In this document: positions 5,942 to 64,000 of the stretch, one piece after another
Layout: the number at the start of each line of letters is the position of its first letter
Numbering within the stretch: position 1 is the first letter of the stretch
From: Proteromonas lacertae
Lineage: Eukaryota
Direction of reading: 5' to 3'
Assembly: GCA_002245135.1 (NCBI GenBank)
Contig: NGBS01000009.1
Location: 62,001-126,000 of the forward strand
Length of the DNA: 64,000 bases
Program-made: the position numbers and the translations under genes
Notes under the pieces: generated by a model
The model's database searches: none
The model's input: the letters and a program-made list of their open reading frames with translations, nothing else
Told to the model about the DNA's origin: nothing

Positions 5942-8900
5942 ATGAAAAGATCCTTTGTATCAACAGTTGTGTGTATGATTATTATTATTATTATTTAATA
6001 GTACTATGCATGGCAAGTTGTTCTTGTGCTTTGACATTCGATTATGAAGATATGCATCCTTTTTATGTGGTAAGAAGTGTAATTACCGAAAATAAACCAA
6101 ACCCTCCAAAAGAAGGATCATACACTGTTTCACCAGACTTACCAGATGGTTTATCACTTGATTCAAAGACAGGATATATTTCCGGAATTCCAACAGTTCA
6201 ATCTTGGACAAGTCATACAATTGTTTATAATGCAGGTCAAGATGATCAAGCATCATGCATATTGATGATAGTCTGTATATTTATCAATTATATATATAAT
6301 TTGACTAGGTATGTCTGCTCCTGTTGTAAATTGTGGTGTATCAAAACTAACAACAGTCTCTCTTATTAATACAGTTATTACTTGTACTTCAACAGGTGAT
6401 GCTTCCGATGATAGTTGGTCAATGACACCCAAAGAAATCCGAGGTGTTACTCAAGATGGTTCCTCTTTGACATTTCGAAATTTCAATCCTCAAACTAACA
6501 TGAAAATTACTATTGAAGCTAGAAATGATGCTGGAACTGGAAGTTTTGACATTGATATTGTTAAAGTAGAGAATCCTGAATTAAAGGATGGTATATTTGT
6601 AACATTTTATGATTTGGAGACAACGAAATGTGATAATTATTATGATGGTATCCCTACATATGAATTTCCATTTGAAGTTCCAATGAATAATTTAGATAAC
6701 TTAACCAATTATGAAAGTTGGATTCAAAAAATGCAAGTATCACCTTGGGGTATAATAACAACATTTAATGGTACAATGGATGGATTTATCAATATTGAAA
6801 CAGCTGGTGATTATACCTTTTATATGCAAACTGGTAATGAAATGAATGCTAGAGTGTTTATTGATGATGTTGAAGTATTATCTGATTGGAGTGAATGTAA
6901 ACCATGGAATGATGATCCAATGAAGAAAACAGTGAAATTAGAAAGTGGTTATAGAAGAGTGATAGTAGATTTTATGGGAGGTGAAGGATTAGATTTCAAA
7001 TTTGTATTAGATTATTCCACTGCAGGAAGTAGTATAAGAAAAACCATTCCATTTAAATATTGTATATATATATATATTGTTTATTATCTGAATAGATTAT
7101 TCGAATTTTAATCCAGTAATGTTTCTATCTGCTGATACTGCCGAAGTTAGTTGGAAATTAGATGCCTTTAGTTTAACTCCAATACATGTATCAAAAGGTA
7201 AAGCTGAAAGTTGTTGGATAAGTAATAATGTTGAATTACCAGAGGGATCTGAAGTAACAGTGAGTGGTATAACAGGTCATCCAGCAATCTATGATGGATT
7301 ATACAGAAGTTAAAATCAAATGTAAAAATCAAGACAGTGAAACAAATGAAATAGCCTTGAAACTTCGTGTTACAGATACTGTAGTTAATGGAGTAAGAGC
7401 TTATTATTACAAACCTTATAATTTCGATACTAGTTTAAATACAAAATATGGTCCAGAAGTTGATGGTATTGATCCATTATATATTCAAAAACAAGATCAA
7501 CCATTCATTCAAGAAATTCAAGAAAAACCTCATCCTGAAGGACTAAGTATAGAAATTCTTGATGATTATGGTGTTTATTGGGAAGGTTATCTTCATCCAT
7601 TACCACAGGATTTAGGATTAAACAATTTCAAAGTTATTGCAGATGGTGGTTATTGGGTTTGTTTTAATCATAAAGAAGTATTAGCTAAGCCAGGAAGAAA
7701 TACAATTGAAGATGAATGATTCTTTGATTTTAATATGACTGATGATGATTATTTGGTTCAGATTTATTTTGTTTCACATAATGGTCATGCATCTTTTCTC
7801 CTATCTAAAAAATTAAATACACAAACTGAAGAACAATACAGTGATTTTCTTCCTTTCAGATATGTTCCAGTAAATGATTATTTCCTAATGACTCAAAGTA
7901 CAGCGACATATCTTAATGGTCAAACAGTAGAGAATCAAGCAATTCCAGTTGAAAGTTTTGGATGTAAAGGAATAAGTGTTGATCCACCATTACCCAATGG
8001 TTTAGTTGCACATTGTTTACCAAGTTCATATATGCCTGTAGTTATTAGCTCATAAAATCAAAGTTACAAGTACACTTGATAAATCTATTTCAACTACTAT
8101 CTATATATCTGTGAAAAGTATAATTCATTTATTTTTATTATCTTAAATAGCTGTTCAATCACCAGCAGATTTTTATGTAATAGATCTTCAAACTGGAAAA
8201 GAATATACTGATTCAATATTCTTAGTTGTAGGTGAATTCTATGATCTTCAATTCCATGTGAAATCTGGTTATGCAATTGAATTTAGAGCTGAGAATATTC
8301 CAGTTGGTTTTACATATGATTGGAAATCATCAACTCTTTCAGGAAGTCCAAGAGAAAAATTAAATACAAAAGTGACGAGTAACTGCAGTTGTTCTTCCTT
8401 CTGATGGTGATAATAAACAATTTGAATTTGGAATAAAAGCTGAAGGTGGATGTGAAAGTGGGAAAAGACATTCCTTCCATTTCAGTAATGATTTTGTTGA
8501 TAATGGTCAATATTTAATGTTAAGAGTAACAGCTTCAAATGGTACAATAGTTTTAAATAAATATGAAAAGAACACAGTTAGTTTACCTCGAACTTACAGT
8601 ATGTGTCTTCCAGTAGATACTTATACAATATATATAAGTGGAATGTTTGATTATGTATTTACTGTTTACAATGATGGTGTAAGAATCTATCGATATACTG
8701 GTGATTTTCCTGTTACTGATTCTCATACAGTTGTACTTAACACAGGTATATATTATTTAATTATATGTAATTGAATAGATCCTGTTGAACCTAATTTTAA
8801 ATATATTACCAATAATGCAACCTATTATCAAGGTAATCAAATCCTATTAATTCCAACAATAGAAACATTTGTTGATTATTTCACTATTACTCCTTCAGCA

Positions 8901-11900
8901 TTACCAAGAGGTATTAGATTCAACAATATAACAGGAAGAATATATGGAACAGCTCGTTTTATTACTAATGCAACAACATATACAATCACAGCTATAAATG
9001 ATAAAGGTCGAAAGAGTGTAGAAATGATAATACATATAATTCCTGATACTCAAGAAGATGATTGTGAAAATGCAGGAAAATTCTTGATTGGATTAACCTT
9101 AGCTGTAGGAAAAGAATATGATAGACCAGCTTATCAATTAATCAATTCAAAAGATGAAGTTGTATTTGAAAGAGTAGATAATACATTTACTGAAAACTCA
9201 ATAAACAGTATAAAGATGTGTATAACAAAAGGATGGTATACATTGAGATTGATTGATATAAGTGGAGGTGGTTGGGGAAATTCCAATATGACAATCTATG
9301 CAGGTAATTCCATAATTGGTAGATATACTGTGTCTTATACTGATAATGGTGAAGTAAATATAACAACTGATTGTATATATTAATTGTTTTATAATTTCTA
9401 TAGTTACATATTTGATGGATACTCGAACACAATGGCAATATAATCGACAATATGTTCCAAATTGGGAATTTAAGAACTTCACTTTAACATGGCCAACATC
9501 ACCAATAACAACATTGGCTCAACCTCCACTTACTATGCCAACATATTATTTGAGATATCCATTTATCATTCCCAAATTATGACAAATATTCAGGTTATTT
9601 CCTTCGAATTAAACATAGATCTGGTGTAATTGTCAGAGTAAATGGAAGAGTAATATTCAGAGATAATTTACCAGTTGGTGATGTCAATGAAAATACTCCA
9701 GGAGATACTGCTTATGAAAGAGCGAGAGAAGAGAATTTCATATTACCAATCGATGATTTAAATGAAACAGCAATAATAACTTATGAAATTCATAAAAGTC
9801 CAACGGATGATAATTTCCCAAATGAAGATAGATTTTTTATATTCCCATTAGATGGAGATAATGATGAAGATTGTATTTTAGTTACACTTTATGGTGGAAG
9901 TGTAAGTGATTCATCTAGTAAAAGTTTTGGTAAATATGAATCATCTTTTGCTCATGCAGCATTTGATTTATCAGTTGAATCATCATGGGATGATTATTAT
10001 GGAGCAGTAGATGGTTATTCCTATGCTGATTATACATTTGGTAGTAATAATCATTTCGCCTTTAATCAATTCACAATGAGAGCTGGTACTAGTGCAACAA
10101 ACACATTATCCAATGAAAGTGTCATTAACAGGTACAACAGATACATCGACAGTGTCGATTGGTTCATTAGATCCAGTAAATTATTTCATAACAAAGAAAT
10201 ATACACCAGGAAGAGCAACCTTCAACGTAGATCCTTATACATTATATAAAAGTGTAAGAATTGATATACCCAAATCAAACCAATATGATTATGTTAATAA
10301 AGGAATGGAAGTGAGAGAAATTGGATATCATTTATGTCGTACAAAGAAGTGTGCAAGAAATTCCATTGAAAATCTTCCAGAAGGAATATCCAATACATTT
10401 TTTAAAACAAATTGTTCAAAGCCTGATTCTGCTGGTGAAAGATATTTTTATTGTTCAAACTTTGCTTTATGGATTGAAGCAAATTCTACTTGTGGAGATC
10501 CACCAAAATTCATTAATTCAGTAACAACAGCATATTTAGATGCTGGAGTTGCTTATGTAGATGAATCAATATATGAAGTAACAGGAAATCCAACATTTTA
10601 TAGTTATTCATGTTCTGATTGTGAATCAGGTAAGTTTATTCCTGGATTGTTCTACAATCCGTTAACTGGTTTAATATCAGGAACTGCTTATAAAGGAGCT
10701 ACTTATTCAATTAAGTTTACTGCTAGAAATAGCTATGGATCTGGTGAAATAACAATGACAGTAGTTGTTCGATCTTCTAATGATATTATCATATATGAAT
10801 ATAAACCAACAGTATCATTTAATCTTTATGCAGAATTAAATGAACAAATATTTTGGGTAGAAAGTAGTTCACCTGTGAGTTATACTGTTGATTTACTTCC
10901 GCTTGGTTTAACAATAGATTCTTCAACTGGTTTTATTAAAGGAAAATCAACAAGACCAGGAAAGACGATAAGTCTATTCACTATTTCCAACACAGCTGGA
11001 AAATCAACAACAAGAACTGTTGAAATTACTATTGCATTACCTAATGAACCAATAATGGTTGAATCTGTAGATAAATTAGATTTAGTCTATATGATGGATT
11101 ATGATAATCAATATCCAATATTATGTTATTCAAATCCCTTAACTTATAGCATTGATAAGAATTTACCAGCCAGTTTAACTTACAATGCAACAACAGGTGC
11201 AATGAAAGGAAAAGTAACCGCTTCAGCTCAATCAGCAGTTAGCTACAAATTCTCTTGTACAGGTAAAAGTCAAACAGTTTCAAAAGATATTTTAGTATCA
11301 GTAATTCAAGGTGATGATATTCCAGTTGTAATTAGTCAAAATGAATCTGTAATCTTAACAACAGGGCAAGAATTATTTAATGAGAGATTCTTTACAGTGA
11401 GTGGATCAAATTTAGTTTATTCAATTACTCCCACATTACCAAGTGGAATAACAATGGATTCTAAAACAGGAACATTTAGTGGTTATGGCAAAGTAGATAC
11501 TCAAAATACAACTTATACAATCAATGTATCTAATGGTAAAAACTCAATTCAGATTAAAATGTTAATAGTAGTAGTAAAAAGTGAAAAACCAGTAATTCCT
11601 GATTCAACAGTAAAGAAAGATATAGAAGTAGCAACAGGAACAATGGTGTCAATACAATTATTTGATGCAGTTGGAGATGGTTTATCAGTATCAATAAATC
11701 CGCTATTACCTGATGGTTTTATAATATCTGCTTCTGGATATTTACAAGGACTTTCAGTGGTTGATGTTGCAAAACAAGATTATGTAATAACAGTAACAGA
11801 TTCAAATGGAAAATCAGCAAGTGTAACAATCAAATTAGAGTTTAAAGCAAAGAAATGTCCAGCTAATGATGGTTTTCCTGAAACTCTAGTAGGTGATCAA

Positions 11901-12176
11901 GCAGTAATAAAATGTGGAGGAGGTCGATCTGGTTTTATAATGAGAAGATGTATTTATGTAGATGGGAATGCAATCTGGGAAAGTCCAATTGATGAATGTT
12001 CAGGAAGTACAACAGGTGCTTTAGTTGGAATAATAATTGGTTGTATAATATTGGGAGGAGTTGTATTCTTAGGAGGTTATTGTATTTACGTCAGAGTAGG
12101 TGGAAGAACAAAACATGTTCGAAAAACAGCTGAACAAATGGTTGATGCTTCAAAAGATGCTGGTGTAAGAATTTAA
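5942..12176 (+). CDS. Large type-I membrane surface protein with putative Ig (He_PIG-like) repeats and PA14-like domains; frame-disrupted as assembled
   Basis: Spliced N-terminus MKRSFVSTVVLLCMASCSCA resembles a signal peptide. Repeated LPxGLxxDxxTGxISG motifs, PA14-like segments (GFINIETAGDYTF; YGVYWEGYL) and a C-terminal TM helix. Five +1 shifts and one in-frame TGA (7717-7719). Confidence 0.8.
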
Positions 12177-14947: not shown

Positions 14948-16370
14948 ATGTCTTATCGAGAATTGAGACGTAATAATTTTTTGAATAATTTATTATAGGT
15001 TTTACTGAAATTATGCGATCTTTGGGTTATCCTCATAAGATCTCAGTATTAAAATTCAAATTTTATTGATAGGTTGACAGTTTTAGAACCCCTAACTTTG
15101 AGCTTGTAGCTGATTGTTTATACTGGTTAACTACTAGGTATATTGTATGGTTGTATTGTTATTTAGATATGATCCACATATAAATATATCTGATGAGTAT
15201 AGTACTGAAGAAGATAGAATAAATTTACTAACTACAATAGCAGAAGTATTTTTTGAAATTCTATTTTCTAGAAAATGGCTAGTTTGGCTAGAATCCGACT
15301 AAATACAAAAAAACTTTATGCGGCAGAGGGTCATGCAGTACGTGAATTACTTAAAATAGCAAATATACTATATAAGTATCAATAATCAAAATTTACTCTA
15401 TTGTAGTGCACATATTAATACAACAGATGATGATACAATTGAAGATGCCTATGTAGATGATGAAAAGAGAATATCAGTAGATACAGCTAAAGATTTATCC
15501 AATGGAATTAGAGAAAGTGGTGTAAAACTATATGATTTATTAGGCGAAGAAAGCCAATTATCAGCAAGTAGAGCAAAAACAATATCTTTCTTAGATACAT
15601 CAGGCATTGGAGGTGATTTAGCAGCTAAGTATAAAGAATTGATTTTTTTTAATAAAAATAGAAAATTAAATGGTTTAATAACATCAGCAGAAGCTAATGA
15701 AAAACAATTAGATGCACAAATAGACGAATTAAAGAGAGATAAGAGTACTTTTGAGAAGAAATTAGAGAAAAAGAACGAAGATTATGAAAGATTAGAGAAA
15801 AAGATCCATGAAACTCGTAATTTCAGACCTGCTTATATGGATGAGTATGAAAGATTAGAAGATGAAATGAGACAGATTTATGCAGAATATTTAAGCAGAT
15901 ACCGTAATTTAGATTATCTAGAAAAACAATTAGACAAATATAATAGACAAGAAGAAGAAAGTGCTAAAGCAGCTCAGAAAGAATTAAAGAAATTACAAGA
16001 CAAAATGAAGAGGGATATAATAAAGGCAACAAAAGAGAATTTAGATGATGTTGATGAAGATGATAGTGAATCAGGCTCAGATTCAAGTGAAAGTGAATCT
16101 GGATCTGATGAAGATGAGAGTGATGGAGAAGTTGCTGGTGGAGGTCGTGGTGGTTATAACAGAATGGGAGGTAATGGAGCAAGAGGTGGTGCTGCAGGTG
16201 GTGGTGGTGGTGATAGAGGTAGACCAGCTGGTCAGAATGGTGGTGGTAGATATAATATAAGAGGTAATATGGCTGGTGGAGGTGATTCTAGTCCATCTGA
16301 TAGTGATTCTGATGATGATGACGATGATGATGATGATAGTGATGTACCATCTAGTGATGAAGATAATTAA
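14948..16370 (+). CDS. CLUAP1: Clusterin-associated protein 1 / IFT38 (IFT-B subunit)
   Basis: Spliced product starts [19 protein letters not shown]...[12 protein letters not shown] and contains [12 protein letters not shown] plus an acidic tail. Six short introns; frame intact. Confidence 0.93.
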
Positions 16371-19233: not shown

Positions 19234-20060
19234 ATGACAGATTCAAAAATCCCTCTTGATGTAATGAGTATGATGGGGTTATAACGTATTATATTAAATA
19301 GAGCCATGCAATTTATGTGGCAAGATAATAACTGATTCTGTTTATGTGACATTTAAAGATAAGATTAGTCACAAAGAATGTTTCAAATGCTCAAAATGTG
19401 GAAAATTATTAGATGGACAAGAATTTCAGGTTGAAAGCGTAAAATTCTGTTATTTAATCTTTTTTATAGGATAAATTATACTGCATTGACGATTACAAGA
19501 AGTATTTCTGTAAACATTGTGCAGTTTGCGGAGAGGCTTTAATAGGAAAGTTCTATCCTTGTGGTGATAAATTCTATCATGATAAATGCTTTGTTTGCAA
19601 GGACTGTGGAAAGAGTGTAGTTAGTGGATATAAAGAATCTCCACCAGATGCTGATCATGATGTTGGTATCTTCTGCCCAGATCACTATTACGAACATTTT
19701 GGTGAAATCTGTACTGCATGTGGTAAAAGATGTCATGCACAAGTTGAGATATTGAGGGATTATAAGTACCATCCAGAATGCTTTTCTTGCTGTGTTTGTA
19801 AGAAACATCTTGAAAATGGTGAATTTAAAGTCCAATTTAGTGAAGATAATCAACCTCCAAAGATATATTGTACAGAACACTATGGAGAATTAGTAGCTCC
19901 AAAATGTTGTGGATGTAAAAAGCCTTTGGAAGGAAGTTATGTTACTGCAAATGGAAGTACTTATCATCACGAATGCTTCAAATGTGAAAAATGTGGTAAT
20001 GTCATTGAAAAATCCTATGCTATAGTTGATGGTAAAGTTTGTTGTCCAAATTGTAAGTAG
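19234..20060 (+). CDS. Four-LIM-domain protein (paxillin-like LIM array), paralog 1
   Basis: Four CxxC...HxxCFxCxxC...C LIM units; two introns. Confidence 0.9.
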
Positions 20061-21202: not shown

Positions 21203-22108
21203 ATGGGTAATTGTTCTGGTAAAAATGCAACATGTATATATAATTGCTTTTTGATAGTTATATTCACTGTTGAGACTAAAATGAGATGAATTGCCTATTC
21301 TTTAGAATTATATATTTCTATATAATTATATTTTAATAGCTGTATCAGGATGTTCTGTTTGTGGAAAAGAAATAACTGATACAACAGTCATTTCTTATAG
21401 AGACAAGAAATGCCATAAAGCATGCTTTAAATGTTCAAAATGTCACAAGGCCTTAGATTTAAACGGATTTAAAATCAATAATGTATTGTTTAAAAGAAAC
21501 TAATTTTTAATTAGGATAAACTATATTGTGTAGATTGCCATAATAAAGAGAATGGCATGAAATGTGCTGTATGCAAACAACCATTAACAGGTAAATACTA
21601 TCCTTGTGGAGATAAACTCTATCATGAAAAGTGTTTTAAATGCAAAGATTGTGGTAAAAGTGTAGTAGATGGATACAAGGAATCACCTCCAGAAGCTACT
21701 AGTAATATTGGTGTATTCTGCCCCAAACACTATTATGAACATTTTGGTGAAACCTGTACTGCTTGTGGTAAAAAAATTCAAGAAAAAACAACAGCATTAA
21801 AAGATTTTAAATACCATCCTGAATGTTTTGCTTGTTGTATTTGTAAGAAGCAATTGTCTAATGGTCATTATCATACAAAGTATGATGATGAGAAAAAACC
21901 TCCTAAAATATACTGTGATAAACATTATGATGAATTATTTGCACAAAAATGTTGTAAATGTGATAAACCTTTAGATGTGAAATATGTTACAGCTAATGGT
22001 AAAAATTATCATCATAAATGTTTCAAATGCGAGTTTTGTGGTAAAGTGATTGATAGTTCATATACCACAGTTGATAATAAAATATGTTGTCCAAAATGTA
22101 AAAAGTAA
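21203..22108 (+). CDS. Four-LIM-domain protein, paralog 2, with N-terminal MGNC
   Basis: Tandem paralog of 19234-20060, sharing YPCGDK, GYKESPP and HYYEHFGE and both intron positions. Confidence 0.9.
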
Positions 22109-22235: not shown

Positions 22236-22832
22236 ATGGATTATAAACCACCAAACAACCAGTTTTTCGGATTAACAAGTCTAGGAGCTAATTCATTTGA
22301 TCCATCAATTATGGATTATCTTAGAATAAGTAATTTTTCAAACGATGAAATTAGAATTTCTTTCAATAGAATAATAAAAAGAGATGCACCTGGAATATCG
22401 CGAGATGATGTATTTATTTTTAATATTCATTTGTAGATATTCTATGTTTTGAGAGATATGTATCATGGACCAACTCCATCTATACAAGAAGAAGCTGATA
22501 TAATAAGCCAGAATTGTCCAAATGATGTAATTACATTAGAAGACTTTTATAAAGCAGCAGATGTGGCAAGAGAGAAAATGAAGGAAGAACCTATGGGTTT
22601 GCCAGTGACAAAAGAGTTTACATCAACAAATCAATGGAAATTTGTAATGACAAAGCATATCCCCTACAAATATGATCCAAGAGATAAACAGAAAGTTCCA
22701 ATGACAATGTCACAAGAAATTGGATGGGATAAAGAATTCTTTGATTCAACAGAAAAACCATATTTTCCTTTAAATACATCAGAAGAAACAAGATTTGCAG
22801 AAGCTATGATAAAACAAGGAGAATATTTCTAA
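22236..22832 (+). CDS. EF-hand-like protein with C-terminal PxTxSQEIGW motif (FAM183/TEX49-like ciliary microtubule inner protein candidate)
   Basis: DPRDKQKVPMTMSQEIGW...FPLNTSEETRFAEAM; one intron. Confidence 0.5.
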
Positions 22833-25910: not shown

Positions 25911-26941
25911 TCATAAATTCGACAGGTACAAGCTAAAACTATCATCGTTATTCTTGAGAACAAAAAAATCAGAGTGACTATTTTGGTTATAAATGTTTTA
26001 TATGATTATAATAATAACATACCATCTATTTTCATATAAATATAACAATTTAATATATACTTCTTACATCTAGAATAAAATCAATCAAACTTTAATACTC
26101 TCTAAAAATAGTGTAAATATATGAATAGAAAATACAATCTAAAAAATATGGTTTTGCATTATTATATACATTCTATATAAAGGGTAATAATAATTATTAA
26201 TACGGTCTAATCAATTTAATAAATTATATAATACATACATACTATAAATTAAGTTATATATATATACTCTCTATTATTAAAAGAATATATTAATTTATCT
26301 AAATAAATATATGTTATATACGGTATTAAACAACTATAAATTGATAAAAAATATATATATATAAATAGTTATACATTTCAACTCTATAATATTTATATTA
26401 ACAATATTTATTATACGGTCTATAAATCATATTACAATTTTTTATATTATACATTCTATCAATAATAGATGATAAAAATACTCTTTTGGTCTAACAGATT
26501 AACATAATAATTATTATACTCAAATCCTAATATTCTATTATATATTATTTATTTATATAATTATACTGACTATACATTATAGAATAAGTATTTATACTTG
26601 CTATTACAATAAAACAATTAAAAAATATTACTATATACCATCTACAACATTATATATATTATTATACTTTCTAATAACATAATATTATATTAAAATTAAC
26701 ATACGGACTAAAGAAATGTGAAAATAAGTAAACTTACCATTTTATATATTGAATGGATAACAAATATTCTGCTGCTGATTTATATGATTCAATTGCATCA
26801 TCTCCAATATATTTTGTATCTAATTAACCAGATTAGTTGGTTTAGTGATTATATGATACTAAAATTGAATAAAGAACATTGATCTTGCTCAGCAAATCCA
26901 TCATCCATATCTTGCGAGGAACCATCTGGTATTTCGTCCAT
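25911..26941 (-). CDS. Micro-exon gene encoding a 108-aa acidic protein with a CPKC-x25-CKKC zinc ribbon (22 exons, 19 of them 3-15 nt)
   Basis: Regular tag|exon|gtat pattern. Spliced product: MDEIPDGSSQDMDDGFAEQDQCSLFNFNTKYIGDDAIESYKSAAEYLLSIQYIKCPKCNQILGFEPKEIPVEICLIPDIPILECKKCHSDFFVLKNNDDSFSLYLSNL*. Confidence 0.85.
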
Positions 26942-50393: not shown

Positions 50394-51201
50394 ATGAAGA
50401 AGACAACTCAACACACAGCAAGTATAACATCTTTGTTTTTAATGTATAAGCCAAATTATCTGAGAAGAGATTTGATTCACATAAAACAGCTAATCCTTTT
50501 TCTACTAAAGCATTCAAGACGTATATTTGATAATTATTTTTCTGAAGAACATTCGCCAAGAGTTATTCAGCTGGAGATATACCATGTCGAATAGATCATG
50601 GTGGATCAGGAATTAACAAAGTTCAATGGAGTACACCTCCAGAAGTATTTATTTATTCATAATAGCGTAATAGGAACTAAATTATACACAACTATTACCT
50701 ATATTTGCCGATGGTCTTCGTGAAACAGATCATCCCTATTGTTTTTTAGCTAGACAAGGATTTATAGAGTTATGCAAAGCAGCAGAAGGCGCACCAATGA
50801 AAGTAACAGCAATATTACCAGCTGTAGTTCAATCTTTAAGAGGAAGTTTTATATCTAAAGATAATGGTGTATTTGAAGCTTGTTTAAATGCTTTAGAGTA
50901 TAAAATTTTTAGTTTAAATTTACTAGAGCATTATCTAATGTTGTAAAAGAAGCATTAAATCCACATTTGAAAGTTTTATATATCATTTTTTATTGAAATT
51001 TTAAGATTTTTAATAATTCTTTAATATATTTCAATAGTTCCTGTTTCAAGGAAATATCTAGAACCAAAACATAGAGAACAAACACAACATATATTAGAAG
51101 TATTATTATTATTATTATTAACATAATAGACATTAGAAGCAAATGGAGGGCCAGATTCAAAAGCAATTATTAAATCTAAAGTACCAACTTATATGGTATG
51201 A
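50394..51201 (+). CDS. PACRGL: PACRG-like protein
   Basis: GDIPCRIDHG, FADGLRETDHPY, LNPHLK, IIKSKVPTY. Includes an AT-AA intron. Confidence 0.88.
50980..51034 (+). other. U12-type (minor) intron with AT-AA termini
   Basis: 5' end ATATCATT, branch-like TTCTTTAAT, terminates ...TTTCAA. Restores HLKVLLVPVSRK; the overlapping GT-AG option is out of frame. Confidence 0.75.
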
Positions 51202-53761: not shown

Positions 53762-55695
53762 ATGAATTGTATGATTTATTTCATTATATATTATAGTAAG
53801 AGAAGAGGATATAGTTGGATTATATAAGCATTTGGAAAAGGAATCTGAAGAACAAAATGAAGTATTTCAATTATTCTATTCTATGAATAGTTGATATTAA
53901 TAAGAAATAGAACTGCAATAAACAATATTTTCAATCATACTCATACATTTATATCTGATAAAAGTTTTCAATGTGTATTCTACACTACACTTATTGATTA
54001 ATAGGCAGATTATGGAATTACAATTCCAAAAAGAGAAAATGTTATTCATCTAGCAGAACTTCCACTAGTTCCAAAAATGTTTAAGTATAAATAGCTCTAT
54101 TTTTATAATAATGTTTAGATATCACCTATGTAGCAGAGTTGTGCATGGTAAAGAACGTCCAGAGTTAGATTATTTACCATATATTGACGATGATCACAGA
54201 ACTGTCAATTTCGAACAATATGATTCAATTAAATGTGGAAAAGAGAAATTAGCATTATCAGAACCAGAAAAATTAATGTTAGACGTAATATCGGCATCCG
54301 ATTGCTCAAAATATTACAAACTAATAAAAGATAATATACTCAATACACTCTCTGATCATTTATCTAGGAGTAATCCAAGGCTGAAGTATGAACAATTAGA
54401 AGAAGAATATAATCATTTAGTTGAAGGAAGAGAATTATACACTTTTAGACATTTTTACAGTGGAAATCCAAATTGTACTTGTAGTTTATGTACATATTGT
54501 TCAACACCAAGGTCTGTAAGAGAAATGAAAGAATTAATGGATGTATGATATATATATATATATATATATATAATTATAAAATAGATGATTCCTGTTATTC
54601 CAAAAATCAATAATTCCACCAATTCTATTGTTGACATTACTACTCATTTATCATCATATCGCAAATATTTCTGTAGACAATGTTATTGTTATAATTGTGA
54701 ATTACATGATACAAATCAACCATTACCTGCTAATCATGGTAATAAATATAGAACAATCGAAACTAATAATAATGGTACTGAAGAAGATGATGATAATGAA
54801 AATGATAAAATTCCATTAAAACTAACCAATTGTACACCTAAAGAAGCAGTAATATTCACAGAATTATATAAATTATTATCTCTCAAAGAAATGAATATAT
54901 TAAAAACCGATACTTCAACAAGAACAACAACCACTACGAAATTAAGTTTAGAAACTTTCGTACCATGTAATCATTCAGGTCCTTGTACTTCGCAGAATGA
55001 TTGTATATGTAATCATCAAAAACATCAATGTGAAAAGTTCTGTGGTTGTTCTTTAGATTGTCCTAGAAGGTTTAAAGGCTGTAATTGTAAAGCAGATGCT
55101 GAATGTAATTCAATGAAATGTACTTGTTATGCTTCTTCTAGAGAATGTGATCCTGATGTTTGTAACTGTTATCATACTAATGAGAATGGATCTTTAGGCT
55201 TAACCTGTGATAATATGAACTCACAAAAAGGATTTCAAAAGAAATTGTTGGTTAAACCTTCACATATTCATGGTTGGGGTTTATACTTAGGTGAAGATTG
55301 TGAGAAAGATGAATATATTGCTGAATATAGAGGAGAATTTATATCACAAGAAGAAGCTGAAAGACGTGGTTATATCTATGATAGAAAAGGAATTAATTAT
55401 TTGTTTAATGCAAATAGAGAGTCTGTTTTAGATGCAACTAAAGTGGGTAATAAATTGAGATTTGCTAATCATTCGAATAATCCTAATTGTTATGCTAGAA
55501 CTAGATATATTAAAGGCAATCATAGAATATGTGTTTATGCGAAAAGAGCATTGAAAATTGTATATATATATATATAATATTGTTTTGATATAGAATGATG
55601 AATTAACATTTGATTATGGTTATAATGAAGAACATGTACAGCCACAATGGTTTTCCACTTCTAAAAAGAGGAAGAGAAAGAATGATGATGAATAA
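53762..55695 (+). CDS. Enhancer of zeste-like H3K27 methyltransferase (CXC + SET)
   Basis: FCRQCYCYNCELH, CXC (CEKFCGC...RECDPDVC), SET (HGWGL, EYRGEFISQEEAERRG, RFANHS, ELTFDY). Confidence 0.9.
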
Positions 55696-55767: not shown

Positions 55768-58700
55768 TTAATGAAGACTATCATATTCTTCTATTTTCTT
55801 ATTTGCAACTTCCAACCATTTTCTAGCTTTTGGAATCCAATCTTTACCTAAATTACTCAAAGCCTTTGAACTATTTCTTCTAATATCCACCATCTTCTTA
55901 TGGACATTCTCTCCTTTAATTTCGATTGCTTTTTCTTTTCTTGTCTTTCTTTTCTGTAATTCATCTCTTTTACCTAATGCAAATTTATCATATTCTTCTC
56001 CATGCTTTACTTTATAACTACTAACATCACTTTCTATCTCTTCTAAGAATTGTTCTAATTCTTTCTTACTGATCTTCTGTTGACTATATTCAATTTGTTT
56101 CTGTCTTTTCAATTCATTCATTTCTTCAACATATCTACTTATATCAGATTCACATTTATCCAATTCATCTAATAATATCTTTTCTATTTGTTCATTATCT
56201 TCAACCATCAATCTCTTTTGATTCTCTTCAAACACTGCCAATTCTTTATCACATCCATTTATCAAATTCTCTTCTTCTTCTTCAATCTCAGTTCTTTCTT
56301 CCATTATATCTAATATCTTTCTATGTAATTTCATTCCTTCCATTCTTAAATCTCTACCATAGAATTTATTATGAGCTTCAGTAATTCTTGTCAAACATAT
56401 GTTAATATCTTCACATAAACTTCTCTGACAATCTTTGATTTCTTCTCTTCTATTCATTCTCGCACTTGTTATCCATTTAATAGCCATTGCCTTACTTGCA
56501 CTACTTAAATACAATCTGTCATGTGGAATTGATAACTCACCTGATCTTTCTCTTAATTTAATATTGTAAGCTCTTCTTGCACGTTTTTCTTTACGTTTTT
56601 CATCTCTTCTCTTTGAATCTTCAATGCATTTCTGTTTATAATCTTCACTTTCTTGAATAGCTTCATCACTTGGTTTTTCTATTTGATATTTAGTTCTCAT
56701 TATTGTTAACCATTTCTTTAATAATAAATAATCAGTTGTTCCTTCCTTGATTTCTATTGGATCATAGACATTTTCAAATTCATCTTCATCACTTTCTTCA
56801 TCACTATACTCTTCATTATGAATTCCTCTTTCTAACTGAGCTTCATTTCTACAATATTTACATCTTGTTACATAATTAGCATTCTTTCTGAAGAAGAATT
56901 GCCAATCAAATTGTGAGATTATATCATCTGCACTTCTTGTTTCTCTCTCATATTTATTAATCAAATCCTCTAATCCATGAGTCAATATTCTTCCTTCAGC
57001 ATCACATAAATCAACTATCAATTCATCACTATTAAACTTTCTATTACAAACACTACATATTTCTTCTTTATTATTCTCCACAATTTCATCAACATAACTC
57101 TTATAGATTCTTCTTCTTCTCACTTTTTCTAACCAAAATTTAGCTATATCTCTTGTCTTTGGTGTTATATTCTTTCTTTCCCACATTCCTGTTCTGAACT
57201 TTTCTTCTGCTTCATCATCATCACTTACTTCATTTTCTTCACCTAATTTCTCTTTTCTTACCCGTAACTTATTATAAATTGATTTTATATATTCTCTTGT
57301 ACTCTTATCATCATATAATGGTGCTTCTAATGTTCGTGGTGTTAATAATTTATATAAATGATCCAATATCCATGTCTTATTGCTGGTTAAGAATCTTAAT
57401 CTAAATCTGTCTGAATTTAAGGCATTTAGTTCTAATCTTTCTTTCTCTACATCTAATGATCTTCTTATTCCTAAAGTTGCTTTTTCACCAGCATCATCAT
57501 CAACATATCCATCATACTCTTTTCTACTCCATATTCTTAACAATTGACATAACACAATTAAGAAGTATTTTGATATTGTCACAAATAAAAACATGAAGAA
57601 TAATAATGGGAAGAACATTGGATCTGAGAGTGGACTGAAATACACATTAGTACAGATGAAATAACCAACAATTATTGAGAATATTCCACTAACATACAAT
57701 GTATTGATGAAGTAATATTGAGATGAAAAACACAATTTATCAATAATTCTCAAACTTTCTGTCAAACTATCATCCAATTTTGTAATATACATTGACCATT
57801 GACATTCTCTCATTCTGAATCTTTGATTATCAAATCTTAAGAAATCAGTCATTCTATAACCATACAACAATTCCATTGCACTTAATAAGAATATCTCCAT
57901 AATAAACACTGCTACTAATAATATGAAGAAATAGATAACGTAATAATAAACCCAACTTAACTTAATATCAAATTCACTGTAAATTGGAATCTGTAAATGG
58001 AATACTCTTATTAATAATAAAGCGAATGGAATTAAGTAATAAACATGTAAATCAACAGTAAACATAGCGAAATTCTCTATTATTGGTTCTACACTTTCTT
58101 TATCTAATTCAACTAATCTTTTTAATCTTCTCCATTCTGCTTCTTCTTCAATTCTTTCCCTTTGAGACATTTTGTGATGATTTTTACACTTTCTTCTTAT
58201 TGCAAATACCCATTTAGGCCATCTTTTAACACAGAATAATATTAATGGAGTTATATACATTCTATTGATTATTGTACATCCCATTATGATGAAGTAACAG
58301 AAAATAAAATCTAATAAATCATAGGCTGATAAAGCTACAAACATTGGAACAAATGTAACCATAATATCTAATGGAATTGCTAATATAAAATCTCTCAAAT
58401 AAATCTTATAAAATGTAGTGATTATTAACTGACATATTTTCATAATACCAATGAATAAGTAAACTCTTTCTTTAAACCAATGTGAAAATGAGAATTCTAT
58501 TGCAGTAATACAATATATTAAACATAACATCGTATAGAAGAAGAAGTAACTTCTCTTCCACCAATGAGGTCTCCAGTACTTTGAATATTCTCTTTTCTTA
58601 TCTTCATCACTATCATAAAATGTATTATCAATATTTGGCATAAATATATATTCTTCTTTCTTCTTATCATCAAATGATTCAGTTGGTATAAACACCTTCA

Positions 58701-61700
58701 ATCCTTGGAATATAATATAAACACCAATTATTAAGAAACAAGTTCCCATTCTTCCATTTTTCACTGCAGCTATTGTTTCTTCAGACATTACTGATGTATC
58801 ACTCCAATCTCCTTGTTTATCTTCAAAACTAATTGGATTTGGCTCTTCTACTGGATGATCGGAGGAGAATACTTGGAACCATATCCATATCATACCACAA
58901 CCCCATAATAATGGAGTTAAACCAGTGATTATACCGATTAATGAGTTAGGTAAAACTGCTGCGAATAATTTACAACAATTACAACATGGAGGATTTCTTA
59001 ATAACGTAATGATTCTATGGAATAACCAGAATATAAATCCTATTACAATTAAACCTAAAAATATCATTCCTACGAAGAATAAATAGATTGGCCAATTGAA
59101 TTCGAATAAATTGAATAACTCATACCAATTCAATGGGTAATATTGTATATCTAATGTATAATTTGTACTATTACACTTCAACACTGGTGGATCATAATTA
59201 CTGAATCTTTCTTCTTCTTCTGGTTTATGTGTGATTGTACAGAAATCATAAAATTCAACAAATGAATCTAACAAGTATTTCTCATTCTTTTCATCTTGTT
59301 TATAAGCAATAAACAATTTAATATTTCGTGGAACCATTGTATCTTCTGAAGCATGTTCTGACACTTTAACTGGTATTAAATCATCAGTATCTAATAAGTT
59401 ATGAACAGCGCTTGTTCTACCCCATTCACTACCATCTTCTTTACCATAATAATCTCTTGAATTCATTGGATACTTGGTTAAATAGAATAATATTGATTCT
59501 TCTTCTAATTCAAACCATCTCTTTAAGTATCTAACTCTAAATATTTCTTCTTCATAATTACATTTCAAATGAATTCCATCACATTTATCAGCATGTGGAT
59601 CTTCTTTTGTTTCATCTTTCTTTGGGAATTGCTTTATAACAGTTGTATTATCATAATCTACTATATTACAATCAGGATTATCTTCAGTCATTTTACCAAT
59701 GAATATATTATTATCATATTCCTCACATTGAGAGAAATAAGGTAAATAAGGGAATGCTATATATCTTCTTTTTACGAAATAATCCCAAAATGTTGAATAA
59801 TATTCCAAATCTTCAGCATAATCACCTCTTGAATAAATTGATTGTGAATTATCACTATTATTGAATGGTAATATTGTTCTATTGTATTTCTCTAATTCTC
59901 TTTCTCTATAACCTGGATCACCAACGTCATAATTAACTATATGATTAATTAAGGCTGTTCTTTCTAACACTTTGAAACTATCTCCTGCTTTTCCATATTT
60001 GTAAATGTTTACTGGTAAGTTGTAAGGTAAACCATAATGTGGTTGAATTAATTCTCTATTTATCACAGCTAAGAATTGTGTTGCTTTTTCTGTAACATTC
60101 ATTATATCTTCATCTGGATCATAATTACTTCTGTGTGGGTAAAATATTGATAAATCTGATGTATTATGTAACTTTGCAAATGCTAAGTAATAACCACCAT
60201 GAATTAATTCCATTGTAAAAATAACTTTGATTCTGGTTTGGGCTTGAATATTGACTTGAACCATTGTATGTTTATCATCAAAATAAGGTTCAATTGCTAC
60301 ATTCTGTGAGAAGTACGAAGGCAATGGATGTGGAATACATTTACAACATTCTGAACATAGGAAACCTGATTCTGTTTGTGTTTTATTATTCGGCCAATCA
60401 CAGGATGGATGTTCATATGAATTTTGATAATTACATTCATACATTGGCGGACATGGTGTACAATTCATATACACTCCAATTCTATAATGTTGACCATATG
60501 TAAAATTCTGTTGTAACATTGATAAATTCATTGTTAATGTTGCTATACCATAACCATCTAATTCAAAGAAAGGTAATCCACTTTCTTGTCCACTGAATAT
60601 CTTTAAATGCTCATCATTTGGTTGTAAGTATTCATTATCTTCATACACTGGAACTAATCTTTTTACTACTGTAACTTTATCTTTTGGAACAAAACAGTCT
60701 TGATAATTTGTTGCAAAACCATTGGTTGTTGTTCCATTTGGACATTTCAAGGATCTTTCACATTTACATATATCTAATCGATATGGTACATACTTTGTAT
60801 TATCAGTTTCAGTACTACTTTCATCAATATCTTCAATAAATTTGACATAATTTGGTAAATCTTCATCTAAATTGTCTATTAAATCTAATGCCCAGTAATA
60901 ATCATATATGTTTAAATCATATTCTATCCTATCACTTTCTATTTCTGCTTCATTACATTCTTCAAAGTAATCTAATCTTGTTGTATCTCTACAATATTTC
61001 TCTCTTCTTTCATGTTCATATTCTTTCTTTACAGCTTTACTAAATTCATGGAAATTTGGGAAATGTATCTTTTGTTTGTATGTAAATTGTAATGTAGTTC
61101 CATTAGTATAATCTTTTCTTTCTTCTAATCCATAAGTAACATTTGGTTCAAATACACATTGCTGTTTACTTCGTGGTCTTTCAGTACATTTCCATAACCT
61201 ATAAACATCTAATATTCTATCAATCTGAGCATTGCAATCACAATCTCCTCTTAATATTACATTATAAATATGTCTCCAATAACTATCTCTACCACATGTT
61301 AATTCAGCTAATTTCTGTACACTCACTTTACCTACAGAACCATCTTGTAATTGATAGCTTTGATATATATTAGACAATGAATCATTCAATGCAGCAATAC
61401 ATCTTTCATCATGATATACCAAATCACCTACCTCTTTCATTATTCTTTTACTTTCAAATGTTTCATTCATCCATACTAAAGCATTGAATGGATCAGCTTC
61501 ATCTCTTGTTAAATGTCTTCTTAAAGAATCCATTGCCATTGTTCCTTCATATGGATCACCTGTTCCTGTAGGACAATAATAACCAATTGGACATGGGAAA
61601 TCATATTTCAAATCTTCTGCAGTTGCTGCTGGACAGTAATAACCTACTGGACATATTGATTTATATTGACTGAATGGGTTTAATAAGTTATAATCTGGTG

Positions 61701-64000
61701 TTGTACCATCATCACATGCATAACCTGGTTTACATGATACTGCTACTTGATTATCAGATCCTGTACTTTCATAACAAACATAACCTTTGGGACATAATAC
61801 TGAATGTGTTATTGTATCAAAATTACAAATATAATCAGCTTCACAATCACCTGGTATATATTCTGTGGATGTATCATTCATGAAATAACCATGTTGGCAT
61901 TCAGTGTAAAATGAATAATCTCTAAATGTTGGTAAATCTATAAATAAAGAACCTCTACCAAAGAAACCATAATATTTATCTATTGTGCCATGACCTTGAT
62001 GTGTTTTACCTGTTAATTTATAAGATGAACCATAATATTGTCTATATAATTGATACAAAGGAGAACCATCAGCTTGTGGATTGTAATAACATTTTCCTAT
62101 TGGTAATCCTTCTTCATCATAATCTACTGATCTTATATTTGGTTTACCTGTAGTATCATTCACTGAAAGTAAACCCCATTTGTATAACTTTCCAGCTTGT
62201 TCACAATCATATTTATTAGTAATTGCTGGATATTCTGACCATGCTGTTGGTAAATCTTTCTTACTACAAGGATCAACAATTCCTTCTACTGGACAAACAA
62301 TACCTGGAGGACATCTATTACATTCACTCTTATCTCTCAATTCATAATTCTTACCCCAAGTACCTTGTGGACAACCAATACAAACTACACGATTCAATTT
62401 ACCATCAGTGAACTTATAATCATTATTACGATAAGTTCCTGGCTTACACACATTTGATTTAGACATTCCATCATTCTCACATTCTGTACCTGGTGGACAT
62501 CTGTAACATTCTACTGTCTGTATTGTTGGAGCATAAAAACCAGGAGCACAAACTGCACTTTCATATAAACCTGGTAAACTTGAATAATGACCTTTTGGAG
62601 TTGGAATTGGAACTGCTGTACCTTCTGGACAATAGAAACCAACTGGACATAATCCCATACCTTTAGCTGTTGTACTACCTAATTCACAGTAAAAACCTTC
62701 ATGACATGGTTGTGCATATAAGAAATCACCTTTCTTAATTTCATCATAACCAACTCCTCCTGTACAATATGATCCTGGTCTACAAGGATAAGGTCTTAAT
62801 GTTGTATCATTTCTAAATGGATCTGATGTTAATGTACCATTTGGACAATAATAGCCTGCTGGACATCTTAGATTTGGCGCTTCTAATCTTGGTTTACTAC
62901 ACACCATACCTGGTGCACAAATGGCTGGAATTAATCTACCCATTCCTGGACAATAATAACCTTCTGGACAATCATTACAAAGTGTTTGTTGATTCTGACC
63001 ATTGTAAGTACCTGGAGGACATAATTCTGGTTCTATTAAACCTCTTTTTGGACATTGTGTACCTACTGGACATGGAATTCTTTCACCAAATGGACAGTAA
63101 AAACCTTCTGGACATAGATTATCTCCAAATTCACTTGGTCTTCCCATACCTTCAGGACAATACATTGATTCTTGACATGGTTGTGGTGTTGTGAAGTTTA
63201 ATAATACTACATCATAGAATGCAGTACCTGGATAACAATAAGTACCAGCTGGACATGGAACAGGTCTTCTTAATGAGAAATCATATGATGAATAATCAAA
63301 TACATAATCTGAAACTAATAAATCATTTTCATCTGGTAATCTATAACATGAATCATCTAAACAATATCTTCCTCTTATTGGTATAAAATCAGTATCTGGA
63401 TCTAATGGTAAATAGTGTAATTCTTGCCAATATCTCTGTGGCATATCTGAATAAATAAAACCTATATCAAATGATGAATTATCCCAACACATATGATTTC
63501 TTGATCCTAATACCATATCTCTTGGTTTTGAATCTTTATTTGGATGAACTGTACTTCTTCTTTCTACATGACTGAATGATGGACTAAACTGAGTTGAATA
63601 TACTGGTGAACCACAAGTTGTTGCTGTTGTTGCTGTACCTTCTAAACAATAATGACCTTCTGGACATGGTTGATCTGCTACAGCTACACCTGTTACTTCA
63701 CACACATAACCTGCTGGACAAATACGTGGAACTGGTAAACCATATTCTGGACAATGATATCCTATTGGACATCTTAAACAATCAGCTTGACCATAAAGTG
63801 GTTGATAAGTACCTGGTGGACATAATGTGAAATTTGTATTACCTAAACCATTACAATAAGTACCTCTTGGACAGATTAATATTTCACTCAATTCATTATT
63901 TGGACAATAATAACCTTCTGGACATAATCTCTTAAATTCTAATGTATTTCGGTTAGTTGTATAATCCAAACCATTATTGGATATTTCTACATAAACATTA
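55768..64000 (-). CDS. Giant GCC2/GCC3 (ephrin-receptor-like) cysteine-repeat multi-pass membrane protein, 5'-partial
   Basis: ORF of more than 2733 aa with many CPxGxYC repeats, multiple TM helices and a coiled-coil tail. The frame stays open to the window edge (VYVEISNNGLDY, IPT/TIG-like). Confidence 0.85.
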   Translation of the reverse strand, partial: NVYVEISNNGLDYTTNRNTLEFKRLCPEGYYCPNNELSEILICPRGTYCNGLGNTNFTLCPPGTYQPLYGQADCLRCPIGYHCPEYGLPVPRICPAGYVCEVTGVAVADQPCPEGHYCLEGTATTATTCGSPVYSTQFSPSFSHVERRSTVHPNKDSKPRDMVLGSRNHMCWDNSSFDIGFIYSDMPQRYWQELHYLPLDPDTDFIPIRGRYCLDDSCYRLPDENDLLVSDYVFDYSSYDFSLRRPVPCPAGTYCYPGTAFYDVVLLNFTTPQPCQESMYCPEGMGRPSEFGDNLCPEGFYCPFGERIPCPVGTQCPKRGLIEPELCPPGTYNGQNQQTLCNDCPEGYYCPGMGRLIPAICAPGMVCSKPRLEAPNLRCPAGYYCPNGTLTSDPFRNDTTLRPYPCRPGSYCTGGVGYDEIKKGDFLYAQPCHEGFYCELGSTTAKGMGLCPVGFYCPEGTAVPIPTPKGHYSSLPGLYESAVCAPGFYAPTIQTVECYRCPPGTECENDGMSKSNVCKPGTYRNNDYKFTDGKLNRVVCIGCPQGTWGKNYELRDKSECNRCPPGIVCPVEGIVDPCSKKDLPTAWSEYPAITNKYDCEQAGKLYKWGLLSVNDTTGKPNIRSVDYDEEGLPIGKCYYNPQADGSPLYQLYRQYYGSSYKLTGKTHQGHGTIDKYYGFFGRGSLFIDLPTFRDYSFYTECQHGYFMNDTSTEYIPGDCEADYICNFDTITHSVLCPKGYVCYESTGSDNQVAVSCKPGYACDDGTTPDYNLLNPFSQYKSICPVGYYCPAATAEDLKYDFPCPIGYYCPTGTGDPYEGTMAMDSLRRHLTRDEADPFNALVWMNETFESKRIMKEVGDLVYHDERCIAALNDSLSNIYQSYQLQDGSVGKVSVQKLAELTCGRDSYWRHIYNVILRGDCDCNAQIDRILDVYRLWKCTERPRSKQQCVFEPNVTYGLEERKDYTNGTTLQFTYKQKIHFPNFHEFSKAVKKEYEHERREKYCRDTTRLDYFEECNEAEIESDRIEYDLNIYDYYWALDLIDNLDEDLPNYVKFIEDIDESSTETDNTKYVPYRLDICKCERSLKCPNGTTTNGFATNYQDCFVPKDKVTVVKRLVPVYEDNEYLQPNDEHLKIFSGQESGLPFFELDGYGIATLTMNLSMLQQNFTYGQHYRIGVYMNCTPCPPMYECNYQNSYEHPSCDWPNNKTQTESGFLCSECCKCIPHPLPSYFSQNVAIEPYFDDKHTMVQVNIQAQTRIKVIFTMELIHGGYYLAFAKLHNTSDLSIFYPHRSNYDPDEDIMNVTEKATQFLAVINRELIQPHYGLPYNLPVNIYKYGKAGDSFKVLERTALINHIVNYDVGDPGYRERELEKYNRTILPFNNSDNSQSIYSRGDYAEDLEYYSTFWDYFVKRRYIAFPYLPYFSQCEEYDNNIFIGKMTEDNPDCNIVDYDNTTVIKQFPKKDETKEDPHADKCDGIHLKCNYEEEIFRVRYLKRWFELEEESILFYLTKYPMNSRDYYGKEDGSEWGRTSAVHNLLDTDDLIPVKVSEHASEDTMVPRNIKLFIAYKQDEKNEKYLLDSFVEFYDFCTITHKPEEEERFSNYDPPVLKCNSTNYTLDIQYYPLNWYELFNLFEFNWPIYLFFVGMIFLGLIVIGFIFWLFHRIITLLRNPPCCNCCKLFAAVLPNSLIGIITGLTPLLWGCGMIWIWFQVFSSDHPVEEPNPISFEDKQGDWSDTSVMSEETIAAVKNGRMGTCFLIIGVYIIFQGLKVFIPTESFDDKKKEEYIFMPNIDNTFYDSDEDKKREYSKYWRPHWWKRSYFFFYTMLCLIYCITAIEFSFSHWFKERVYLFIGIMKICQLIITTFYKIYLRDFILAIPLDIMVTFVPMFVALSAYDLLDFIFCYFIIMGCTIINRMYITPLILFCVKRWPKWVFAIRRKCKNHHKMSQRERIEEEAEWRRLKRLVELDKESVEPIIENFAMFTVDLHVYYLIPFALLLIRVFHLQIPIYSEFDIKLSWVYYYVIYFFILLVAVFIMEIFLLSAMELLYGYRMTDFLRFDNQRFRMRECQWSMYITKLDDSLTESLRIIDKLCFSSQYYFINTLYVSGIFSIIVGYFICTNVYFSPLSDPMFFPLLFFMFLFVTISKYFLIVLCQLLRIWSRKEYDGYVDDDAGEKATLGIRRSLDVEKERLELNALNSDRFRLRFLTSNKTWILDHLYKLLTPRTLEAPLYDDKSTREYIKSIYNKLRVRKEKLGEENEVSDDDEAEEKFRTGMWERKNITPKTRDIAKFWLEKVRRRRIYKSYVDEIVENNKEEICSVCNRKFNSDELIVDLCDAEGRILTHGLEDLINKYERETRSADDIISQFDWQFFFRKNANYVTRCKYCRNEAQLERGIHNEEYSDEESDEDEFENVYDPIEIKEGTTDYLLLKKWLTIMRTKYQIEKPSDEAIQESEDYKQKCIEDSKRRDEKRKEKRARRAYNIKLRERSGELSIPHDRLYLSSASKAMAIKWITSARMNRREEIKDCQRSLCEDINICLTRITEAHNKFYGRDLRMEGMKLHRKILDIMEERTEIEEEEENLINGCDKELAVFEENQKRLMVEDNEQIEKILLDELDKCESDISRYVEEMNELKRQKQIEYSQQKISKKELEQFLEEIESDVSSYKVKHGEEYDKFALGKRDELQKRKTRKEKAIEIKGENVHKKMVDIRRNSSKALSNLGKDWIPKARKWLEVANKKIEEYDSLH

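Follow-up and report, generated by a model that had tools for sequence, protein, structure and literature searches.

Symmetric micro-exon runs, phase-2 runs and isolated 3-nt exons are already known, from the MEGs of schistosomes, the bicycle genes of aphids, and plants and fungi, respectively. According to the accessible parts of the published descriptions, the exons of MEGs are mostly 15 nt long, lie between introns of 0.1–5 kb and make up as much as 75% of the coding sequence; MEGs encode secreted proteins, form multigene families, and exon skipping has been demonstrated for them (PMC4015677; bioRxiv 10.1101/2023.06.21.545858). Bicycle proteins are described, as far as the available text of the two reports goes, as secreted effectors with CYC motifs, encoded by genes with long introns and comprising hundreds of paralogues under diversifying selection (bioRxiv 10.1101/2021.09.24.461719; 10.1101/2020.10.28.359562). 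Micro-exons of 1–15 nt in plants and fungi mostly occur singly (27 three-nucleotide exons in 26 Coprinopsis genes), and about half of those in plants are multiples of three (3n), in mixed phases, in the portions of the reports that are available (PMC8831610; PMC12230235). In the open-access literature we found no account of runs of 3-nt exons between introns of about 30 nt, or of the locus described here, and none of micro-exons in Blastocystis.

The window, i.e. the whole stretch of 64,000 nt of Proteromonas lacertae DNA that was analysed, has a GC content of 27.4% and contains no N. A GC content of 27.0% is given for the genome of this organism, and nearly all flagellar genes are described as lost in Blastocystis, in the accessible part of the source (PMC12129017). 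Three cilium genes of the window score above Pfam cut-offs, namely Cluap1 (14948-16370, plus strand), a FAM183/SPMIP11-like gene (22236-22832, plus strand) and ParcG (50394-51201, plus strand), which indicates that the organism is flagellated. The calreticulin encoded in the window has relatives at 98% and 79%; among its named matches two long entries from a plant and an insect come first, followed by Blastocystis sp. (63%) and several stramenopiles.

On the minus strand, the gene under study is flanked by a PP2C gene and an oxidoreductase-like gene, the latter presumably HTATIP2-like (Pfam gave no significant match). Searches for close relatives of the neighbourhood returned none: none of 38 candidates for the oxidoreductase exon, one of 1472 for PP2C with 28% identity, and, in a scan of 103 metagenome stretches, one bacterial-looking match of 39%. 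An Rfam search of the locus gave no match at E<=1. The predicted structure of the gene is as follows.

26860..26941, minus strand: predicted coding exon 1, 82 nt, with the ATG at 26941 and an acidic N-terminus
26820..26859, minus strand: predicted ordinary intron, 40 nt, phase 1
26738..26819, minus strand: predicted coding exon 2, 82 nt, ending in the TG of Cys55
26708..26737, minus strand: array intron 1, 30 nt, splitting the Cys55 codon
26567..26707, minus strand: five 3-nt exons with introns 2-5, giving, codon by codon, the first CxxC knuckle and the residues after it
26070..26566, minus strand: introns 6-18 with exons of 15, 9, 3, 3, 9 and 12 nt, then six of 3 nt
26023..26069, minus strand: 9-nt exon, intron 19 and the last 3-nt exon, giving the second CxxC knuckle
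25978..26022, minus strand: array intron 20, 45 nt, splitting the Cys87 codon
25911..25977, minus strand: predicted last coding exon, with TGA at 25913-25911

A fusion of this gene with the downstream oxidoreductase, via a 91-nt intron and an exon made of an A/T run, was judged to be a gene-finder artefact.

The array as a chain of splice signals

From 26737 down to 25978 on the minus strand, 760 bp hold 20 predicted introns and 19 internal exons, the introns being distributed over 33 codons. All introns read GTA...TAG (19 GTAT, one GTAAGT) and are 26–51 nt long. The internal exons measure, in order, 3, 3, 3, 3, 3, 15, 9, 3, 3, 9, 12, 3, 3, 3, 3, 3, 3, 9 and 3 nt (96 nt in total); 14 of the 19 are 3 nt long, with runs of five and of six in succession.

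This intron array is real as a chain of splice signals. If introns and micro-exons are chained without any frame rule, the longest chain comprises 20 introns here; elsewhere in the window no chain on either strand exceeds 4, and dinucleotide shuffles (n=1000) reach 10 at the most. Twenty YAG sites have a GTA no more than 18 nt away, 18 of them at a 3n distance; shuffled sequences give 3.2 on average and never more than 11 (n=5000). A gene finder trained on other genes recovers the array parse unaided. The identical 20 introns are also returned, at three intron-opening rates, by a frame-blind model that uses splice signals, length and base composition only and was trained on 97 predicted introns outside the array; its posteriors are at least 0.93 for 19 introns and 0.76 for intron 14. 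Therefore, the 3n symmetry is not circular.

The first-pass annotation of this DNA had described the micro-exon lengths as multiples of three throughout and the introns as uniformly phase 2. Both descriptions are correct: the former applies to 19/19 exons, also in the frame-blind parse, and the latter to 20/20 introns in the sole stop-free frame. The uniform phase exists because all exon lengths are 3n; this is one property with an inherited phase rather than twenty facts. The alternative internal AG/GT sites in three exons, mentioned there as a caveat, are weak (posteriors 0.05-0.24).

Introns are short in the entire window according to the gene finder (median 32 nt, mostly GTAT...TAG). Compared to the 97 ordinary introns, which are themselves predictions from sequence, the array introns do not differ in median length (32 vs 32 nt, P=0.99), donor score (P=0.58) or acceptor score (P=0.25). 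An array scan for repeats found one weak repeat of 31 nt and 2.2 copies.

The usual eukaryotic donors are GTAAG and GTGAG. Donors in the window are mostly GTATA or GTATT, a preference that may reflect altered U1 or U6 pairing. The donor of array intron 1 (26737-26732, minus strand) is the sole GTAAG among 164 predicted introns of the window, and none of 101 ordinary introns with a GTA donor carries it. Intron 12 (26321-26271, minus strand) is the longest of the array with 51 nt; within it, a TTTAG at 26299 precedes an AT-rich segment that lacks GT, and the intron may represent two former units of which one lost its donor.

Several other genes of the window were noted. A large predicted surface protein (5942-12176, plus strand) consists of repeated Ig-like units, and the first nine introns predicted for its gene share phase 1, a second and ordinary example of a uniform phase. 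A tandem pair of similar LIM-like zinc-finger genes lies at 19234-20060 and 21203-22108 (both plus strand), and their predicted exon structures match (34/137/591 and 31/143/594 nt). An Ezh2-like gene with SET, CXC and MCSS domains (54069-55577, plus strand) was missed by the gene finder used here. A single open frame, longer than 2700 codons, occupies about 55790-64000 (minus strand) and continues past the end of the window; it has hardly any introns in a genome rich in them, and its product, with numerous CPxGxYC-type repeats and several hydrophobic segments, has the appearance of a mastigoneme-like or surface protein. A candidate second array at 62-64 kb was rejected, as it falls inside a long open frame.

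Coding evidence and the predicted zinc ribbon

Joining the two upstream 82-nt exons across the phase-1 intron with the array and the last exon gives a predicted product of 108 amino acids. Selection on the spliced product, as proposed in the first-pass annotation, is supported. Over the 33 array codons, G or C occurs 13, 11 and 2 times at codon positions 1, 2 and 3, and none of 20,000 base shuffles equals the codon usage of the array. Each of the other two frames of the joined array contains 3 stops, and if the order of the exons is permuted, only 1.8% of the permutations stay free of stops.

This bears on a reading of the locus as a decayed or non-coding relic, in which the gene would end after 55 amino acids at the TAA in intron 1 and the array would be an untranslated or unspliced AT-rich tail. 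The array region has 16% GC, and retention of intron 1 indeed places an in-frame stop directly after exon 2. On the other hand, splice sites are intact in 20/20 introns despite fully diverged interiors, and a relic would be expected to show neither the 3n spacing nor the GC pattern by codon position nor two CxxC motifs. We regard it as highly improbable.

Bases at the exon junctions had been read as signs of selection. The counts of exon starts are accurate (A 14, T 4, C 1 and G 0 of 19), but the absence of G is not significant (P=0.08 under window codon usage), and neither is the equally correct absence of exons ending in TA (P=0.33 under window codon usage). Three exons had been said to end in TG; two of these are among the 19 internal exons, and the third is the upstream 82-nt exon. 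The excess of A at exon starts is significant: 8.0 are expected from the first two codon bases under window codon usage (P=0.0025) and 10.1 given the amino acids, and A follows 14/20 array introns vs 10/28 ordinary phase-2 introns (P=0.04). Such an excess may serve to keep a GT from overlapping with the acceptor, or may suit the uridines of U5 loop 1, U5-exon pairing being treated in the accessible part of one source (PMC8283771). By virtue of this excess, most skips from the Cys donor create TGA; skip-joins from the two upstream TG donors do so in 14/19 and 12/16 cases, and skipping of the TCC exon does create TGA at the first Cys as had been noticed before.

The joined frame encodes CxxC-x25-CxxC, and the array spans exactly Cys55-Cys87, introns 1 and 20 splitting the first and the last cysteine codon. 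Most of the 25-residue stretch between the knuckles is encoded in 26070..26566 (minus strand), including the IP and D-I-P-x-L-x-C motifs common to YgiT-type fingers. The YgiT/MqsA family was picked after the sequence had been viewed, and a home-made YgiT-type profile was built from 63 of 73 candidate motifs from bacterial loci. On this profile the score of the spliced protein is 16.5 bits, vs 45-82 bits for members scored in-sample; the curated cut-off of 20.2 bits for TIGR03831 belongs to the official model and thus to another scale. None of 2000 shuffles with fixed Cys (maximum 16.2) and none of 1000 permutations of the loop exons (maximum 11.7) reaches 16.5 bits. Profiles of IS1595 (18 sequences), Trm112 (30) and Zn_ribbon_4 (14) were tried as well and fit worse (9.0, 6.7 and 8.6 bits, respectively), and members of these three families reach at most 11.1 bits on the YgiT profile. 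The closest YgiT-type members are stand-alone proteins of 73-84 amino acids that align end-to-end, with 28% identity over 39-43 residues and E 0.002-0.006 in a database of 63 sequences. The HMMER match to the profile broke into two pieces.

This data is suggestive of a zinc-finger domain that resembles the bacterial YgiT/MqsA type (TIGR03831, PF15731), which is a resemblance and not a membership. Shared features are the CxxC...CxxC arrangement, IP/LP in the first strand and, in the alignment, [DNG]-[IVL]-P-x-x-x-C-x-x-C in the second strand. The protein differs from this type by a spacer of 25 residues between the CxxC pairs (27-30 in bacterial members), an acidic N-terminal extension and its eukaryotic host, and by the PP2C and oxidoreductase-like neighbours in place of a toxin-like one. 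Every single exon skip (19/19) scores below the full product on the profile, with the smallest losses for exons 8-10 and the largest for exons 1 and 12-19. The first-pass annotation had proposed possible loop-length isoforms between the knuckles. The full product outscores all single skips and 1000/1000 permutations, which suggests that this stretch is patterned as a beta-hairpin and does not form a free loop.

Hydropathy gave no indication of a signal-peptide-like or membrane-like stretch in the 108-residue product: the best 8-residue mean in the first 30 amino acids is 0.42, the best 19-residue mean is 0.98, and 8 of the first 25 residues are D or E. Exon 2 has a weak match to the MIT domain (E=0.062, under the cut-off) and no match in a PDB search. 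A weak match of the exon-1 frame to a repeat protein (E 1.5e-4) was judged to be due to chance.

Serial splicing, exon skipping and the origin of the introns

Based on this dataset, we consider it somewhat probable (roughly 0.55) that the locus is a working gene whose introns are spliced serially, and mostly constitutively, to mainly one 108-residue CxxC-x25-CxxC protein. Splice sites would be paired across each intron of about 32 nt (intron definition). A 3-nt exon is presumably too small for two spliceosomes at once; neighbouring introns would hence be removed in turn, and the exons already joined would then serve as an upstream exon of normal size. We would expect the product to be an intracellular protein that binds zinc with a beta-hairpin ribbon of YgiT/MqsA-like type. 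Plant coding micro-exons, too, are mostly included, in the accessible part of the source (PMC8831610). Splicing of the array into this frame, in whatever manner, is very likely in our judgement, since two of the alternatives discussed below, a splicing-capacity gate and the colonisation of an older domain, also imply a spliced product.

The first-pass annotation had taken the symmetry of the exons as evidence for a diversifier. In a combinatorial reading of this kind, similar to schistosome MEGs, the exons between the knuckles would be skipped in combinations to yield a library of zinc ribbons with varied hairpin lengths. All 19 exons are 3n in the frame-blind parse, and all 4096 subsets of exons 6-17 leave the frame open with both CxxC (3712 distinct products). 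Skips of exons 8-10 cost no more than 1.5 bits on the YgiT profile, the family spacer itself varies from 27 to 30, and MEG exons are symmetric and skipped, as far as the available text goes (PMC4015677). However, the symmetry does not discriminate, as frame-preserving duplication gives 3n lengths under constitutive splicing too. A single skip requires a merged intron of 61-104 nt, 2-3 times the usual length, and lengths above 60 nt are found in 4 of 101 ordinary GTA introns; in favour of skipping, a few introns of 83-106 nt are predicted in the window. The knuckles are split as well: skipping of exon 1, 2, 3, 18 or 19 destroys one of them, and random skipping at 50% keeps both CxxC in 2.6% of the products. 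Neither a hydrophobic leader in the product nor, within the 64-kb window, a paralogue of the gene was found. Hence, we consider combinatorial diversification unlikely. The related statement that a skip deletes one residue in frame needs a correction, in that the neighbouring residue can change too (e.g. exons 3, 5, 13 and 19). Among 190 skip-joins, only 26 create a stop, and a skip of the whole array is in frame and would give 76 amino acids.

A splicing-capacity gate or delay may be considered as well. It is compatible with serial splicing and can sit atop it; the array would be kept because the yield falls as the 21st power of the per-intron efficiency, and intron 1 would act as the switch. 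By simple arithmetic the intact yield (p^21) is 0.81, 0.65, 0.34 and 0.11 at 99, 98, 95 and 90% per intron, which makes the idea arithmetically plausible, the same arithmetic applying to any intron-rich gene. Retention of intron 1, with its singular GTAAG donor, or skipping of exon 1 both end translation at the first Cys, 18/20 single retentions shift the frame or introduce a stop (introns 9 and 12 read through), and the array covers precisely the stretch from the first to the last zinc-ribbon cysteine. Against a gate, nothing that connects the protein with splicing or stress was found, and such a function seems improbable as the reason for which the array was kept.

For the origin of the array, we hypothesize that a single phase-2 intron was copied locally and repeatedly, each time together with 3n bases so that the frame was kept, and that this would have happened long enough ago for similarity to be gone. 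A tandem copy of intron plus exon within a coding region would have to add 3n bases, even with constitutive splicing. Uniform phase 2 would be inherited from the founder intron and therefore gives no sign of exon shuffling. The 97 predicted ordinary introns are distributed over the phases as 36/33/28, and thus phase 2 is not a genome habit. Recent tandem duplication, or a young introner family, was rejected: neighbouring introns are not alike (mean z 0.22 for 190 array pairs vs 0.35 for 600 ordinary pairs, with no distance trend), and z exceeds 3 in 1/190 array pairs vs 10/600 ordinary pairs. Array introns being no more alike than ordinary ones, the array is either old or arose otherwise, and a duplication would have left no trace. 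Moreover, duplication adds codons and fits badly with an old YgiT-like domain, given that the spacer here is the shorter one.

This difficulty leads to a third alternative, in which introns colonised an older, possibly bacterially derived YgiT-type finger by insertions without added codons, of which only the 3n-spaced ones were kept. The end-to-end likeness to stand-alone bacterial fingers, a spacer no longer than the bacterial one and the mutual unrelatedness of the array introns are in line with it, and the Atlas neighbours of a bacterial member are, among the matches listed, bacterial or mostly archaeal clusters. However, independent insertion would place 20/20 introns in phase 2 with P ~1.6e-11 (at a phase-2 share of 28/97), which would require a register-keeping process or strong selection; a shared target sequence at the junctions was not found, and the YgiT link is again one of resemblance. 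On these grounds we think colonisation very unlikely. In a more far-reaching combination, a folded domain, perhaps of bacterial YgiT type, would have been colonised codon by codon in triplet register from the first to the last Cys, and kept as a spliceosome-capacity switch or as a library of hairpin variants. We find this combination doubtful.

Comparison with known systems

With 20 introns in 33 codons and its runs of five and six 3-nt exons, the array lends itself as a test substrate for the way in which a spliceosome deals with back-to-back introns that have almost no exon in between, including the order of removal, U5 contacts and the marking of exon junctions. A second question is how introns multiply in place with their phase kept. 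The whole array fits into a 760-nt amplicon. Genes of this kind are easily missed by standard annotation and by short-read aligners; hence, more of them may hide in protists with short introns.

Isolated micro-exons in plants and fungi are the precedent for spliced exons no longer than 3 nt, and coding ones in plants are usually included, as far as the available text of the reports goes; here, in contrast, such exons form an array, with 19/19 being 3n and in uniform phase. Aphid bicycle genes, in the accessible descriptions, have 5-25 micro-exons with almost all internal exons in phase 2 (20/21 introns here) and two cysteine motifs in a small protein. They differ in that the present protein has CxxC pairs and not CYC and no hydrophobic leader, and the gene has tiny introns and single-codon exons. 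The lineage is unrelated, and the parallel is one of layout only. Schistosome MEGs, again in the accessible parts of the reports, are similar in having 10-20 very short, mostly symmetric 3n exons in a row in the gene of a small protein. Here, 14/19 exons are 3 nt long between introns of 26-51 nt, micro-exons contribute 96 of 327 nt (29%) of the coding sequence, and hydropathy points to a product without a signal-peptide-like or membrane-anchor stretch.
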